Sequence record: NC_047812.1
Source of the DNA: Escherichia phage vB_EcoS_CEB_EC3a
Strand: one strand, 5' to 3'
Length of the DNA stretch: 44,234 nucleotides
A model generated the notes under the pieces. The model searched no databases and was not told the origin of the DNA. It was given only the letters and a program-made list of their open reading frames with translations. The position numbers and the translations under genes are program-made. Positions 20,864-26,760 of the stretch are shown here, one piece after another (within the stretch, counting starts at the first letter, position 1; each line of letters starts with the position of its first letter).

Positions 20864-23800
20864 ATGGCACAAATGATCAAAACAAACATGAGGCTTCGTG
20901 ATATGGCTGAAGAGATTAAGATTTATGGTGCTAAGGGTGGTAGCCAGAAGCAGCACCAACCAGTGGAGCAGGAAGACAACCTCATTTCACTAAACAAGGT
21001 TAAGGTTTTGCTTGCTGTCGCTGACGGAGAGGTGGATTCAAACTTCTCAATGAAGGATTTATACCTTGCTGACGTTCCCGTGCAAAACCAGGATGGTAGC
21101 TACAACTACGAAGGTGTTCGCGCTGAGTTCCGTGCTGGCACGCAGTATCAGGAATATATCGCTGGTCTTGATGGTGCCAACTCAGAGATTCAGGCTTCCA
21201 GAGAAATCACGAACGATACCCCGTACATCATTGCGGTTAACAATACTCAGCTATCAGCGATTCGAATTAAGCTATTTTGGCCTCGACTAGTTAAACAAGA
21301 GAGTAACGGTGACCTGAATGGTATAACTTGCGAGTATGCAATTGACCTTTCCGTTAATGGTGGTGCTTACCAGGAATACACTCGCGGAGTTGCTAACGGG
21401 AAGACCACTACAGGTTACGACCGCAGCATTCGCGTGAACCTTCCTGCAGAGTTTGATAGCGCATTGGTTCGCATCCGTAAGATTACAGCAGATTCAACAA
21501 GTAGCACGCTGGTTAACGGAATGCAGATTACAACCTATCAGGAAGTAATCGACGCTAAATTCCGCTATCCGCTTACGGCACTTGTTTATGTTGAGTTCGG
21601 CTCTGACTTGTTCCCTAACGGCATCCCGACAATCTCAATCAAGAAGCGATGGAAGTTAATTCAGGTCCCAACGAACTATGATCCTGAGACTAGAACCTAC
21701 AGCGGCACGTGGAATGGCCTGTTCAAAATGGCGTGGTCAAACAACCCTGCCTGGGTTCTTTATGACTTAGTGACAAACCGCCGATATGGTCTTGATCAGC
21801 GAGAGCTTGGTGTAGAGATTGATAAATGGGGACTGTATGAAGCTGCGCAATTCTGCGACCAGATGGTGCCGGATGGTAAGGGTGGAATGGAACCGCGATA
21901 TCTATGCGACATGGTTGTACAGAACAAGGTTGAGGCCTACACACTAATTCGTGACATTTGCTCAATCTTTCGTGGACTGACTTTCTATGATGGAGAAAAG
22001 ATTGGTATCGTGGTTGATAAACCTCGCAATCCATCTTACATCTTCACTAATGATAACGTTGTAAACGGATTATTCAGCCGCACTTTTGCCAGCGATAAAA
22101 GCCTTTACACTACGGCAAACGTTCAGTTTGATGATGTGGAGAACAACTATCAGCAGGATGTTGAGCCAGTATTTGAGCTCGAGGCTACTCGCCGATTTGG
22201 TTTTAACCCGGTCGACCTAACGGCAATTGGATGTACGCGAAGAAGTGAAGCAAACAGACGCGGAAGATGGCTACTGAAAACCAACCTGAGAAGCGAAACT
22301 ATCAGCTTCACTACCGGGTTGGAAGGCATGATTCCGATGATTGGTGAGGTTATTGCGGTTAATGACGCTGCATGGTCGAGCAACTACCAGTTAAACCTTT
22401 CCGGTCGTATTGAATCAGTTCAGGGATTGCAGGTTTTCACCCCGTTCAAAGTTGACGCGGCACCGGGTGACAGAATTCTTCTGAACAAGCCTGACGGAAG
22501 CCCGGAAGCAAGAACTATCGCCAGCGTTTCGGAAGATGGTAGAACTATCAACCTGAATACTGCTTTTAGTTTTGTAGCTCAGCCTGACACTGTATTCGCA
22601 ATCGATAAGGATAATCTGGCGCTTCAGCAGTATGTTGTGACCGGGATTCAAAAAGCAGATTCTGATGGTTCGGATTCATTCCAGTATACGATTACCGCGG
22701 TGGAGTATGACCCGAACAAGTATGACGAGATTGACTACGGCGTTAACATTGTTGACCGTCCAACTTCAATTGTGGAACCTGACAGATTATCGCCACCAGA
22801 AAACCTGACCGTGTCAAGTTATAGTAAGGTTGTTCAGGGCTTGTCGGTTGAGACGATGGTTATCGGATGGGATAAGGCTCCATACGCTAAAACCTACAAT
22901 GTTCAATGGAGGAAAGAAAATGGTAACTGGATTAACGTACCCAGAACAGCAAGTACAGAGGTTGATATCGAAGGTATTTACGCAGGAATCTATGACGTTA
23001 GGGTTCGCAGCGTATCAGATACTGAAAACGTGTCTGCCTGGTCTGACATTGTAACTGTATCACTAACTGGCAAGATTGGTCGTCCCTCTGCACCTACGGT
23101 TATCACGGCATCAAATGATGAAGTATTTGGTATCCGTGTTAAGTGGGGTTTCCCTGATGGCTCTGGCGATACTGCTTATACTGAACTTCAGCAGGTTGCT
23201 GATAATGGTGATGGTACATACAATCCTGATAACGCAAGTTTGCTTACGTTACTTCCGTACCCAGCCTATGAATACTGGCATACGCCAATTCAGCCAGGCA
23301 AGGTTATCTGGTATCGCGCAAGATTGATTGACAGAATCGGAAATACGTCTGATTGGTCTAATTTCTCAAGAGGCATGAGTACTGACGACGCCAACATTAT
23401 CAATGATTACATCAAGGTTGATATTGAGGGTTCTGAAGGATTCAAATACCTCGAGCAGAATGCGATTCAAAAGAATCAGGACATTCAGAATCAGGCAGAG
23501 TCAATTCTTGAGAACGCATTAGCTAATGACACTGATGTTCGTCGCATGACTAAGGAGAATGGCAAACGTAAGGCTGAATATGTTCAGGCGGTGAATCTCA
23601 TAGCTGATGAAACTCAGGCGCGTGTAGAAGCTCTAACGCAGCTTAAGGCGCAAATTGATGATGAGGTCGTTGCATCAATTACTGAAGTTCAGACAGCGTT
23701 AGCAACCGAGACGGAGGCAAGAACTACATCCGACACTCAGCTATCAGCAAGAATTGGTGATAACGAGGCAGCGTTAAACCAGAAGCTGGACGCTTTTGCT

Positions 23801-24289
23801 AACGCCACATCGACTGGCGTACAGTACGGGATTAGCCTTGGCCTGAAATACAATGGGCAGACTTATTCATCCGGGATGAGCATGGAGCTTGTTGGCACCG
23901 GTGGGAATGTTCGCAGCCAGTTCATTTTTGATGCAAACAGATTCGCGATCAGTAACGGCATTGGCTCTGGTTCCGGTCAGTGGCAGCTCCCCTTCGTTGT
24001 CGAGAACGGAAACGTAATCATCCAGAGCGCAGTAATCGGTGATGGTTCAATCAGTAACGCGAAGATTGGTAACTTTATTCAGTCAAATAACTATGTGGCA
24101 GGAACTACAGGCTGGAGGATTGATAAATCAGGAAGTGCAGAGCTAAGCAACGCCACTGTAAGAGGTAATCTTTACGCTAACAATGGTAACTTCGCATTCA
24201 ACGGAACCAATAACACTGTTCAGATTAACAACAATGGAATTACGGTAAACTTACCGAACGGAGGTAGAGTTGTAGTTGGAGTGTGGTAA
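20864..24289 (+). CDS. central tail fiber / host specificity protein (lambda gpJ-like)
   Basis: 1141 aa, last gene of tail operon after I. Confidence 0.85.
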   Translation: MAQMIKTNMRLRDMAEEIKIYGAKGGSQKQHQPVEQEDNLISLNKVKVLLAVADGEVDSNFSMKDLYLADVPVQNQDGSYNYEGVRAEFRAGTQYQEYIAGLDGANSEIQASREITNDTPYIIAVNNTQLSAIRIKLFWPRLVKQESNGDLNGITCEYAIDLSVNGGAYQEYTRGVANGKTTTGYDRSIRVNLPAEFDSALVRIRKITADSTSSTLVNGMQITTYQEVIDAKFRYPLTALVYVEFGSDLFPNGIPTISIKKRWKLIQVPTNYDPETRTYSGTWNGLFKMAWSNNPAWVLYDLVTNRRYGLDQRELGVEIDKWGLYEAAQFCDQMVPDGKGGMEPRYLCDMVVQNKVEAYTLIRDICSIFRGLTFYDGEKIGIVVDKPRNPSYIFTNDNVVNGLFSRTFASDKSLYTTANVQFDDVENNYQQDVEPVFELEATRRFGFNPVDLTAIGCTRRSEANRRGRWLLKTNLRSETISFTTGLEGMIPMIGEVIAVNDAAWSSNYQLNLSGRIESVQGLQVFTPFKVDAAPGDRILLNKPDGSPEARTIASVSEDGRTINLNTAFSFVAQPDTVFAIDKDNLALQQYVVTGIQKADSDGSDSFQYTITAVEYDPNKYDEIDYGVNIVDRPTSIVEPDRLSPPENLTVSSYSKVVQGLSVETMVIGWDKAPYAKTYNVQWRKENGNWINVPRTASTEVDIEGIYAGIYDVRVRSVSDTENVSAWSDIVTVSLTGKIGRPSAPTVITASNDEVFGIRVKWGFPDGSGDTAYTELQQVADNGDGTYNPDNASLLTLLPYPAYEYWHTPIQPGKVIWYRARLIDRIGNTSDWSNFSRGMSTDDANIINDYIKVDIEGSEGFKYLEQNAIQKNQDIQNQAESILENALANDTDVRRMTKENGKRKAEYVQAVNLIADETQARVEALTQLKAQIDDEVVASITEVQTALATETEARTTSDTQLSARIGDNEAALNQKLDAFANATSTGVQYGISLGLKYNGQTYSSGMSMELVGTGGNVRSQFIFDANRFAISNGIGSGSGQWQLPFVVENGNVIIQSAVIGDGSISNAKIGNFIQSNNYVAGTTGWRIDKSGSAELSNATVRGNLYANNGNFAFNGTNNTVQINNNGITVNLPNGGRVVVGVW

Positions 24290-24295
24290 ATGATT

Positions 24296-24320
24296 AGGCC
24301 CCTTTCGGGGCCTTTTCTTT
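24296..24320. terminator. bidirectional intrinsic terminator between convergent operons
   Basis: AGGCCCCTTTCGGGGCCT hairpin with T-run downstream and A-run upstream. Confidence 0.75.
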
Positions 24321-25291
24321 TAGTAGAAGTTTGGAATAAATGGAAGTGCCATTGATATGTTTGTGTCGAAAGGGAACCGGGCGCCAGTCTGGGTTGAATA
24401 GTTACCTATTACAGAGCCAGGAACAGCCCTAACAGAGCCTCCAGACATGCAAATGCCCTTGTATCGCAAGTTGTTATACCCTCCAGTAACTCTAGTCGTA
24501 GCGCCACATCTAAGAAGCGGGAAGAATCCACCATTTATTGACTGATATACATTGCTTATTTGTATAAATCCACTAAGTACAAATGGTCGCCTAACGCTGG
24601 AGAAAACAATCTGACCAGAGCTATTTGACATTGTAAGACCGGGTCCAGCTACTGGAGGTTCATTCCTGAATATCACCAACTGAACGTAAGTGCTTGCCGC
24701 CACGTCATCTATGCCACCATAGTTTACATCACGGCACCATATCGTACTGCCATCACTCTCCAGAGACACATTTGGGTTATCCCACTTACCAAATGGTATT
24801 CCGCTAACTGGTAGCGACGCTGCCCCGTTAACCTGTATACCTCCAACCCATGCTGCTGACATTAGTCTCGAGTTGCTTGATATAGCAAGGAAGTCAGTTG
24901 AGTTCTCAATGAGTATCCCTGGACTTGATGAAGATGAAGCCGGTAGTATCTCAAAGCAATTCCCAGCAAAGTCAATTATTCGACCTCTGGCACCATTGAA
25001 GTTGCTGAGCGTTATCCTACCAGTGCCGTCATTTACCTTTTGAAACCCGTTCATGTAATAAACTTCGGGTATAACATCATAAGCGTCAACGTGGACCGCC
25101 TTCGTTGGTAGGCAGAAAGCCGTAGAGCCAGGGGACATTGTCAATCCAAAATCCCAAGAACTTGCTGGGGTTGAAAGTCCATTGGTATTTATTGATCCAG
25201 TCACAGCAGGTGCCCTTAACCCTGCCGTAATCTCCATAGCTGGTCTTCCGTCATTGAGGTCAATCAATATACCCTGAGGCATTATTTCCAC
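24320..25291 (-). CDS. hypothetical Ser/Gly/Asn-rich protein co-transcribed with cor-like gene
   Basis: 323 aa ORF; start overlaps stop of upstream lipoprotein gene. Confidence 0.6.
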
Positions 25292-25524
25292 TCCTTACTG
25301 CCGTGATCTGCAACAGAACCGCCGTAACCGCCACCAGTGGCCTTAATTCCATCGTATCGCACATCAACTTCACCAGCTGGTACAATCACACCATTTTTCC
25401 ATTTAGCTACGCACACGCCGTTTGCTTGGGTTGCACACCATCCATCAGGTCGAGGACCTGAAGAACAACCTACCATCATGATTACTGCTGCGGCGATGAT
25501 TGCTGATTTGATTAAGTTAGTCAT
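25282..25524 (-). CDS. cor: Cor-like superinfection-exclusion lipoprotein (putative)
   Basis: 80 aa, signal peptide with lipobox MMVGCSS, Cys/Gly-rich; downstream of tail fiber genes. Confidence 0.5.
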
Positions 25525-25544
25525 TTTGAATTCCTCATTAAGTT

Positions 25545-25606
25545 GTTTCGTTTCGATGTGGTAATAGTATCGAATCCTTGCGATCAGTGTTTAGCAATTA
25601 GTGCTA
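25545..25606 (-). promoter_or_regulatory. palindrome-promoter module, minus strand (TAGCACTAATTGCTAAA; -10 TACTAT; leader TTACCACATCGAAACGAAAC)
   Basis: Reverse complement of 25545-25612 matches module; palindrome TAG is stop of Rha-like gene. Confidence 0.6.
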
Positions 25607-26251
25607 TTTCTTTTCGAGTAACATCTTGATGTCAATGCCGAGATTATTTTCAATCAATCCAGTCAGTGCATCCGTCTTTTCTTTAAGGGCAAAACACTGA
25701 GCTTCATACTTAAATCTTTCCTCCATCTCGTCAGAGCGACTAACCCAGCACTGGCGAGCCTCGCAAGCCAGCATGTCGAGTTTTTCATCGGTATTCTTAT
25801 CCATGAGTAAGATCTCATTTATTCTTTGCTCTGCAACAATGCGCTGACTAAGGTGTGCATTTTGCGCATTAGCCACACCAAGCATCATTCGCACTTCTTT
25901 TAACTCATCAATGCTTACCATCTGGCTGATTACTTCTTCTTGTTTTTTAACTAATTGCTCAAGCTCATGAAGTCGACGGATAACTTTGTGTCGAAGCACG
26001 ACGCTGTAGCCAGTGATTAGCGTTTCGGTGAGTTCCTTGTTGAGTAAAATCTCAGATGTATAGCCTCGATTGTCTGTAAGTAGTTGATAATCATAATGAC
26101 CCAAATCTGGGGCATCGTTATAATGTAACAATTCATTGATCATTTCCTTTGTGTCGCGAACGACGTGATCATGACGTTTCCCGGTTAACTCTGCGATTTC
26201 CTTTGTGCTCATCATGGTTTTTGGTTGTTCTTTGTACAATTCAATGTTCAT
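25604..26251 (-). CDS. Rha-family phage regulatory protein (putative)
   Basis: N-terminal STKEIAELTGKRHDHVVRDTKEMI motif; start at ATG 26251 with AGAGAG RBS. Confidence 0.55.
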   Translation of the reverse strand: MNIELYKEQPKTMMSTKEIAELTGKRHDHVVRDTKEMINELLHYNDAPDLGHYDYQLLTDNRGYTSEILLNKELTETLITGYSVVLRHKVIRRLHELEQLVKKQEEVISQMVSIDELKEVRMMLGVANAQNAHLSQRIVAEQRINEILLMDKNTDEKLDMLACEARQCWVSRSDEMEERFKYEAQCFALKEKTDALTGLIENNLGIDIKMLLEKK

Positions 26252-26315
26252 TTTCATCTCTCTTTGGTTTTGTGATACGAAATTTTCGTAGCACAAGCAG
26301 CACCATTGCCGCCAT

Positions 26316-26366
26316 GCGCCTAAATATAACTAAAGATAGTCAGTTGTCTTTAGCAATTAGTGCTAT
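26316..26366 (-). promoter_or_regulatory. palindrome-promoter module, minus strand (TAGCACTAATTGCTAAA, -10 TATATT)
   Basis: Reverse complement shows palindrome 22 bp upstream of TATATT; upstream of Rha-like gene. Confidence 0.5.
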
Positions 26367-26379
26367 TTATCGCCAATTT

Positions 26380-26760
26380 CACCATAAATCACGGTTACAC
26401 GTAACCGATGTAACTCTATGTATACAATATCATCCGCGGAAAATGATATACGCGCTGTTACGCCAATTTACGCATTGGTTACATTAAAATATCTATATAT
26501 ATCAACCTTTTACTCTTATTATTATTATTATATATATTACTGTGTATATCATGTAACTACTTCTATAGAGTGTTCCGGTTATAATTTTAATATCATGTGG
26601 ATTTATACAGTATTGCGTGGCAACTATACCAACGCACCCTCAGCCAGGAATGGTATACACGATATACACGACGGTTACATTGAGCTATAGCTGGGCTGAG
26701 GTGCCCAAAAACGTAACGAGAGCTAATACCTACACGGAATTACGAGGATTCACACGTAAC
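26380..26760. promoter_or_regulatory. divergent regulatory region; AT-rich block (copy B) with ACGTAAC/GTTAC repeats including palindrome GGTTACACGTAACC
   Basis: Homologous to 90-345; palindrome at 26393-26406; (TTA)n and (TA)n runs; no convincing ORF. Confidence 0.55.

Follow-up and report, generated by a model that had tools for sequence, protein, structure and literature searches.

A probable LptD-directed host-recognition cassette downstream of the central tail-tip gene of Escherichia phage vB_EcoS_CEB_EC3a

The position downstream of gpJ was defined as a receptor-binding protein (RBP) locus by Maffei et al. 2021, who reported that the allele carried there predicts the terminal receptor across phage families, and that alleles of the Rtp44/45 type are tied to LptD without exception (PMC8594841). 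Furthermore, a 2026 preprint based on genome-wide screens confirms that the DUF6453-type family is associated with LptD.

Structures of both partners on this receptor come from Dunbar et al. 2025 (PNAS, PMC12685063). The lipoprotein Rtp45 of phage Rtp was solved by cryo-EM on the periplasmic side of LptDE (PDB 9RPS); its anchor lies in the inner leaflet of the outer membrane, and it is flanked by LptE and LptM. From there a hairpin braced by the Cys30-Cys38 disulfide runs up the LptD lumen and extracellular loop 4 (EL4) is lifted by up to 20 Å, a conformation that the RBP cannot bind. The exclusion itself is a structural inference, and the sections of the paper that were consulted report no in vivo exclusion assay. 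The same study covers the RBP of phage Oekolampad (RBPOeko), a soluble protein when purified with a His tag, which attaches to LptDE from the outside, the RBP contacting extracellular loops 3-5 and 11 of LptD. Genetic evidence is provided by phage OzMSK, which cannot infect lptD Δ(Y658-Y678) and Δ(L394-V396) mutants (Black et al. 2025, PMC13035648). OzMSK infects fhuA-disrupted strains and arose on them as a contaminant. Its gene product OzMSK_038 is annotated as ‘putative LptD-receptor binding protein based on experimental evidence’.

We analysed a locus of the same kind in the 44,234-nucleotide sequence of Escherichia phage vB_EcoS_CEB_EC3a (NC_047812.1; the window). The window is an Rtp-like Drexlerviridae genome, whose structural half shows 93.5% nucleotide identity to UALMA_PCEc3, and the locus itself is 92.8% identical to that of vB_Ec-G8 (G8). 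It comprises the following features:

20864-24289, plus strand: gene of the gpJ-like central tail-tip protein, 1141 aa, with a C-terminal Phage_Tail_Tip domain at aa 971-1109.
24296-24313, no strand given: G+C-rich hairpin AGGCCCC-TTTC-GGGGCCT, which separates the convergent gpJ and RBP genes; a terminator-like site is reported here on the plus strand.
24320-25282, minus strand: RBP gene, 320 aa from the ATG at 25282, DUF6453, predicted LptD-binding tail-tip protein.
25291-25296, minus strand: Shine-Dalgarno sequence AAGGAG of the RBP gene, within the end of the lipoprotein gene and 8 nt before the ATG, read from the sequence.
25282-25524, minus strand: ORF of 80 aa, predicted superinfection-exclusion lipoprotein gene, Rtp45 orthologue.
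25532-25536, minus strand: Shine-Dalgarno sequence GAGGA of the lipoprotein gene, 7 nt before its ATG at 25524, read from the sequence.

An earlier note on this DNA had proposed two coupled minus-strand ORFs that converge with gpJ, the larger of them 323 aa long, and both ORFs are there, far beyond chance (Pfam E-values of 1.8e-139 and 8.1e-39). The coupling was found as well, in the form of a TAATG at 25284-25280 in which the TAA stop of the lipoprotein gene overlaps the ATG of the RBP gene and shares with it the A at 25282. This overlap makes the pair a single unit of transcription and translation. The same stop/start junction with a shared base is annotated in OzMSK, G8, Rtp, TR1, 2004IV and mEp515, and in OzMSK a ribosome-binding site is annotated at the place equivalent to the GAGGA of the lipoprotein gene. 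The length of the large protein, however, had to be revised. The ORF listing opens the frame at GTG 25291, giving 323 aa, and this GTG overlaps the AAGGAG Shine-Dalgarno sequence (25296-25291). The ATG at 25282 agrees with the annotated starts of the OzMSK, G8 and Rtp homologues and with the N-terminus of PDB 9RPT_C, and the real RBP product is therefore 320 aa long.

At the other end of the unit, the hairpin is likely to be a bidirectional intrinsic terminator, given its place between the two convergent stop codons (gpJ gene end at 24289, RBP gene end at 24320). A promoter scan found no sigma-70-like promoter in 25525-25603, directly upstream of the lipoprotein gene. The scan returned candidates upstream of the Rha-like gene (about 26320-26550, minus strand), but shuffled sequence yields such sites just as often. 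The layout of gpJ, convergent RBP gene and overlapping lipoprotein gene recurs in Rtp, Bas01, OzMSK, G8, TR1 and others, and in Shfl1 and Gluttony, too, the gpJ homologue is directly followed by an RBP gene that is accompanied by a gene for a small lipoprotein.

The 80-aa protein starts with a type II signal peptide, made up of a basic n-region (MTNLIK), a 12-residue hydrophobic core and the lipobox M-V-G-C, in which the cysteine is Cys20 and is followed by Ser-Ser, so that the lipobox-bearing lipoprotein of the earlier note is borne out. Position +2 holds serine and not aspartate, which would permit sorting to the outer membrane. The protein matches the Pfam family PF24052, ‘Phage lipoprotein family’, over residues 1-79 of 80 with an E-value of 8.1e-39 and 131.9 bits (curated cutoff 27 bits), and it also matches phrog_4281 (E 4.6e-35). 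When all PDB chains were searched with phmmer, it matched 9RPS_D, named ‘Phage lipoprotein’, at an E-value of 1.2e-39. Its identity is about 84-87% to Rtp45, with residues 20-61, including the Cys30-Cys38 pair and the hairpin, almost unchanged, 86% to the OzMSK lipoprotein and about 38% to the Dhillonvirus lipoprotein of Gluttony. Homologues are present in about 380 phage records; across 11 of them G19, C20, C30, C38 and E78-W79 are invariant, as are G28, G36, G45 and G51. Collectively, these similarities assign the protein, by prediction from sequence, to the Rtp45-type superinfection-exclusion lipoproteins (PF24052; phrog_4281).

The large protein matches Pfam DUF6453 with an E-value of 1.8e-139 and 464.5 bits, well beyond the cutoff of that family. 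Among all PDB chains it matches one sequence over its full length, chain C of 9RPT/9RPW/9RQI, which is the Oekolampad RBP on LptDE (9RPT_C: E 3.7e-67, residues 2-320 against 2-321, 44.3% identity). Closer relatives are OzMSK_038 (95.3% identity) and the vB_Ec-G8 protein (96.9%), while Rtp44 is about 39-40% identical over residues 1-320 and the Bas01 protein likewise 39%; homologues occur in about 390 phage records. The composition is rich in Gly (11.6%), Ser (11.2%) and Asn (7.2%), as had been noted earlier. The hydropathy scan confirms the earlier reading that a signal peptide is lacking, and it shows no transmembrane stretch either (maximum 19-residue Kyte-Doolittle mean of 1.08).

Compared with the Oekolampad RBP, conservation is found in the N-terminal segment (57%), in the segment 162-201 (62%) and in a C-terminal IPN.Y motif, whereas residues 42-121 are the most diverged and only about 30% identical. 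This distribution of conserved and diverged parts agrees with the location of conserved residues at the tail-proximal base (PMC13035648). A single-sequence AlphaFold2 model of the RBP was unusable (pLDDT 29.7); the 44% identity to the solved structure points to a fold in which two antiparallel beta-sandwiches carry loops at one tip. We predict from these relationships that the 320-aa protein is a virion RBP of the LptD-targeting family (DUF6453; phrog_1265).

The neighbouring gpJ carries the Pfam domains FNIII-A_GpJ, Phage-tail_3 and Phage_Tail_Tip, belongs to phrog_31, ‘central tail fiber J’, matches J-like tail tip proteins in the PDB and is 89% identical to the J protein of Bas01. By analogy with the docking described in PMC8594841, gpJ would be the docking platform of the RBP.

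Because gene structure, family membership and close homology to characterised proteins agree, the locus is very probably an LptD-specific host-recognition cassette of an Rtp-like (Drexlerviridae, Braunvirinae-type) lytic siphovirus. For its own group of RBP alleles the link to LptD consists of the phage-level genetics of OzMSK, the alleles studied structurally or biochemically (Rtp44, RBPOeko) being 39-44% identical.

By analogy with the homologues, which the EC3a allele would be expected to resemble in behaviour, the cassette may work as follows. The RBP, which has no signal peptide, would be made late and dock on gpJ, and its loop-bearing tip would enter the extracellular face of the LPS translocon LptDE, leading to irreversible adsorption and DNA injection. 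The lipoprotein would be exported and lipidated on Cys20, and the serine at +2 would take it to the inner leaflet of the outer membrane, where it would bind the periplasmic side of LptD between LptE and LptM. Its beta-hairpin, reaching up the barrel lumen, would displace extracellular loop 4, so that RBP binding is lost. Such a block of LptD would prevent superinfection and may keep progeny from being wasted on the debris of lysed cells.

The alternative that survives best keeps the module of RBP and exclusion lipoprotein and assumes that LptD is not the receptor of this RBP allele, or that a co-receptor, for instance NupG engaged via gpJ, is needed. Room for it is left by the distance of the RBP from Rtp44 and its Bas01 counterpart (39%) and from RBPOeko (44%), which is largest at residues 42-121, and by the 89% identity of gpJ to that of Bas01, a phage that according to the 2026 preprint needs NupG (via a gpJ domain) in addition to LptD. 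We nevertheless consider it very unlikely. OzMSK, with an RBP 95.3% identical to the one studied here, is blocked by two independent lptD mutations, and the LptD-contacting core of the lipoprotein is nearly identical to that of Rtp45, which would be senseless unless LptD were the receptor. Furthermore, the RBP exceeds both values by which the preprint delimits its LptD family, identity above 30% at a coverage above 99%.

Still less probable is the proposal of the earlier note that a Cor-type lipoprotein inactivates FhuA here and that the large protein is a second, cell-located exclusion factor. In size, lipobox and place the lipoprotein gene does resemble T1 cor, which is found about 1 kb past the J gene and on the other strand, one GenBank record names an orthologue ‘Cor superinfection exclusion protein’, and Cor gives weak, sub-threshold cross-matches with PF24052 and phrog_4281. 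These cross-matches, however, are confined to the signal peptide and lipobox: against phrog_1119 the lipoprotein reaches an E-value of 0.056 and 14.9 bits over residues 8-34 only, whereas T1 Cor, as a positive control, gives 3.3e-30. Similarly, the BLASTP alignment with T1 Cor covers residues 1-45 with a 13-residue gap and 20.8 bits, essentially the signal peptide. A relationship to Llp was likewise rejected, as the phmmer search of all PDB chains with E-values up to 10 matched 9RPS_D and five chance matches and returned no chain of T5 Llp, a negative result that presumes the FhuA-Llp structure (PMC9586334) to be among those chains.

Evidence on the receptor points the same way. Rtp45, to which the lipoprotein is 84% identical, was seen bound to LptDE (PMC12685063), and OzMSK, whose RBP and lipoprotein are 95% and 86% identical to those described here, infects FhuA-disrupted strains and depends on LptD (PMC13035648). 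The homologue of the large protein is soluble; it is described as the RBP of the virion, which attaches to the extracellular side of LptD (PMC12685063, PMC8594841, PMC13035648). The ‘receptor-interacting component’ that the earlier note offered as its other option for this protein is the part that agrees with these reports, and the second exclusion factor is the part that does not; essentially, the protein is predicted to be a tail-fibre component, which the note itself had named as the finding that would speak against its proposal. What stands of the Cor-like lipoprotein is the logic shared with Cor and Llp, that of a probable exclusion factor acting on the phage's own receptor; membership of the Cor family falls with the phrog_1119 and BLASTP results, and FhuA gives way to LptD as the predicted target.

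The idea that the 320-aa product belongs to a membrane of the host cell, or is a ‘moron’, and is no virion component, which follows the category of phrog_1265 (‘moron, auxiliary metabolic gene and host takeover / membrane protein’) and the orthologue label ‘membrane protein’ in many RefSeq records, has almost no probability left, because the protein has no hydrophobic segment in the hydropathy scan (on which ground we reject the label), its homologue RBPOeko is soluble and binds LptDE from the outside, the allele of the gene tracks the terminal receptor across phage families (PMC8594841), and the kuravirus homologue lies within the tail gene block.

Returning to the LptD-specific cassette, we compared its pieces with those of four related phages. 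Identities to the window proteins were:

Rtp: RBP 40%, lipoprotein 87%, gpJ C-terminus 92%.
2004IV: RBP 42%, lipoprotein 82%, gpJ C-terminus 90%.
Shfl1: RBP 67%, lipoprotein 42%, gpJ C-terminus 71%.
ESCO41: RBP 75.5%, lipoprotein 92.5% (the closest lipoprotein), gpJ C-terminus 85%.

Such discordant identities of the pieces of one module indicate recombination breakpoints between the genes, and this mosaicism is what one would expect if the exclusion protein acted on the receptor regardless of the RBP allele.

Outside the window, distant members of both families are also found in podoviruses of about 68-78 kb belonging to the Gordonclarkvirinae (Kuravirus), in which the two genes are unlinked. 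There, ES17_20 is a member of DUF6453 (87 bits; PDB 9RPT_C with an E-value of 1e-9) and directly follows ES17_19, which corresponds to the SU10 tail-needle protein gp18 (PDB 7Z4B, E 2e-176) and shares the Phage_Tail_Tip domain with the C-terminus of gpJ. About 90 such records carry a DUF6453 gene at least 60% identical to ES17_20. The PF24052 lipoprotein is found among the kuravirus early genes (Bas87_0096, E 6.5e-36; ‘putative lipoprotein’ in SU10). The SU10 structure paper makes no mention of gp19, and no link between kuraviruses and LptD was found in the literature searched. The presence of both families suggests that LptD may be an unrecognised terminal receptor of kuraviruses; if this is true, LptD would serve as receptor in a podovirus lineage that is now thought to finish adsorption on the LPS core.

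A combined hypothesis would have the RBP and the lipoprotein as independently exchangeable cassettes, one Rtp45-type lipoprotein cross-excluding all LptD-binding RBP alleles, and LptD as the kuravirus terminal receptor. We put it forward tentatively, as a possibility that is somewhat more likely to fail than to hold.

The module is already known in its gene content, arrangement, receptor and mechanism (Maffei 2021, Black 2025, Dunbar 2025), and the EC3a copy is unremarkable, with near relatives among phages already published. For the window, the main value of the analysis is a correct annotation, since the public labels ‘membrane protein’, ‘Cor superinfection exclusion protein’, ‘u-spanin’ and ‘exonuclease’ given to the two families are wrong or misleading. 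LptD being essential and conserved, such modules are of interest for phage steering and engineered host range, a case that has already been published. Only two points are new, the family's apparent occurrence in kuraviruses and the mosaic manner in which alleles of the RBP and the exclusion protein are exchanged.

Among the known systems, the OzMSK/MSK RBP (CPT_vB_ecoS_OzMSK_038) and the G8 RBP are the nearest, with the same length of 320 aa, the same locus and only few substitutions. The next gene upstream encodes a Rha-like anti-repressor in EC3a and in G8, but a DNA methylase in OzMSK. Rtp45 of phage Rtp shares with the lipoprotein described here the signal peptide with lipobox Cys20, the Cys30-Cys38 pair, the hairpin core and the gene position overlapping the RBP gene start. 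It differs in the Gly-rich C-terminal segment, where the EC3a protein has a 4-residue insertion and substitutions (ATGGGYGG against GSSG), and in its partner, the EC3a lipoprotein being paired with an RBP allele about 39-40% identical to Rtp44. The RBP of Oekolampad (Bas18; PDB 9RPT, 9RPW, 9RQI) belongs to the same DUF6453 family, with full-length homology and 44% identity, but this phage is a Dhillonvirus and its exclusion lipoprotein is of another subtype.

The pairs T5 pb5/Llp and T1/phi80 Cor follow the same logic, in which an outer-membrane protein is recognised by a dedicated RBP or tail tip and this receptor is then disabled by a small lipoprotein of the outer membrane that faces the periplasm. 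The receptor in those systems is the TonB-dependent transporter FhuA, whereas here it is, by prediction, LptD, and the sequence relationship of T5 Llp and T1/phi80 Cor to the lipoprotein described here ends at the signal peptide. The modes of action differ as well, since according to PMC12685063 the Rtp45 type physically displaces EL4 of LptD from inside the barrel, whereas Llp acts on FhuA by long-range allostery.

We found that three neighbouring pieces of the tail-tip region, the C-terminus of the central tail-tip protein gpJ, the predicted receptor-binding protein (RBP, a DUF6453 protein) and the lipoprotein of family PF24052, give discordant similarities when window 23840-25524 is compared with seven other phage loci (L004, L007, L008, L009, L011, L012 and L014). 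Measured against the window proteins, phage Rtp reaches 92% in the gpJ C-terminus and 87% in the lipoprotein and 40% in the RBP, while for Shfl1 the RBP stands at 67%, the gpJ C-terminus at 71% and the lipoprotein at 42%. Furthermore, the nearest lipoprotein is that of ESCO41 (92.5%) and the nearest RBP that of G8 (96.9%). On these alignments, the RBP gene looks like an exchanged cassette whose neighbours on either side, the end of gpJ and the exclusion gene, are conserved.

The complete gpJ (window 20864-24289) is 89% identical to that of AugustePiccard (Bas01), a phage reported in a 2026 preprint to require NupG besides LptD, via a gpJ domain. Residues 988-1100 are nearly identical in the two proteins, and the coiled-coil region around residue 929 of the window gpJ has a 33-residue deletion and reduced identity; the stretch of particular note in this comparison is residues 841-985.

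Directly upstream of the RBP-lipoprotein module lies a further gene:

Window 25604-26296, minus strand: Rha/anti-repressor-like gene (Pfam Phage_pRha, E 1.2e-8; phrog_8235, E 2.3e-86)

The phage carrying this gene looks like a virulent T1-like phage, and in OzMSK and Bas01 the same slot is instead occupied by a DNA methyltransferase gene. Because a scan of the window found no promoter-like site between the Rha-like and lipoprotein genes, these two genes and the RBP gene may be co-transcribed.

The full gpJ-RBP-lipoprotein layout is also present in the lambdoid coliphage mEp515 (L014:1202-2436), and a DUF6453 homologue is found in Yersinia phage PY54 (H170). Were such a phage resident as a prophage, the lipoprotein could be a lysogenic-conversion gene that shields the lysogen from LptD-dependent phages.

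The labels given to genes of both families, represented here by window 24320-25524, have drifted in public records. Many RefSeq records call the RBP gene a "membrane protein", and in one Klebsiella phage (H59) its distant homologue is entered as "exonuclease"; the lipoprotein orthologue of G8 (H1) is labelled "Cor superinfection exclusion protein", and the more distantly related gene of phage Chapo (H99) "u-spanin".

Distant members of both families are present, as an unlinked pair, in podoviruses of the genus Kuravirus (Gordonclarkvirinae), with about 90 phage records concerned. The genes in phages ES17 (L006) and Bas87 (L005) are:

L006:3932-4900: ES17_19, tail-needle gene, equivalent to SU10 gp18 (PDB 7Z4B), with a gpJ-type Phage_Tail_Tip domain
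L006:4902-5933: ES17_20, DUF6453 protein (Pfam, 87 bits; PDB 9RPT_C, the Oekolampad RBP on LptDE, E 1e-9)
L005:2926-3252: Bas87_0096, PF24052 lipoprotein (E 6.5e-36) with lipobox LTGC and an Rtp45-like core

ES17_20 lies directly 3′ of the tail-needle gene, and the kuravirus lipoprotein gene is located among early genes. In the SU10 structure paper gp19 goes unmentioned, and none of the literature searched connects kuraviruses to LptD. This pattern predicts that the kuravirus tail-needle tip would carry an LptD-binding protein and that the phage would encode an exclusion lipoprotein directed at LptD.

In Klebsiella Webervirus phages and Salmonella phage FSL SP-016, by contrast with the convergent order of the window, the DUF6453 gene directly follows gpJ on the same strand:

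L013:1501-2457: DUF6453 gene of Klebsiella phage NJR15, unannotated in the record
L010:1501-2460: DUF6453 gene of Salmonella phage FSL SP-016

In neither group is there a lipoprotein gene beside the DUF6453 gene, and the PF24052 gene of the Klebsiella phages sits elsewhere in the genome. This arrangement consists of the same parts in a different layout.
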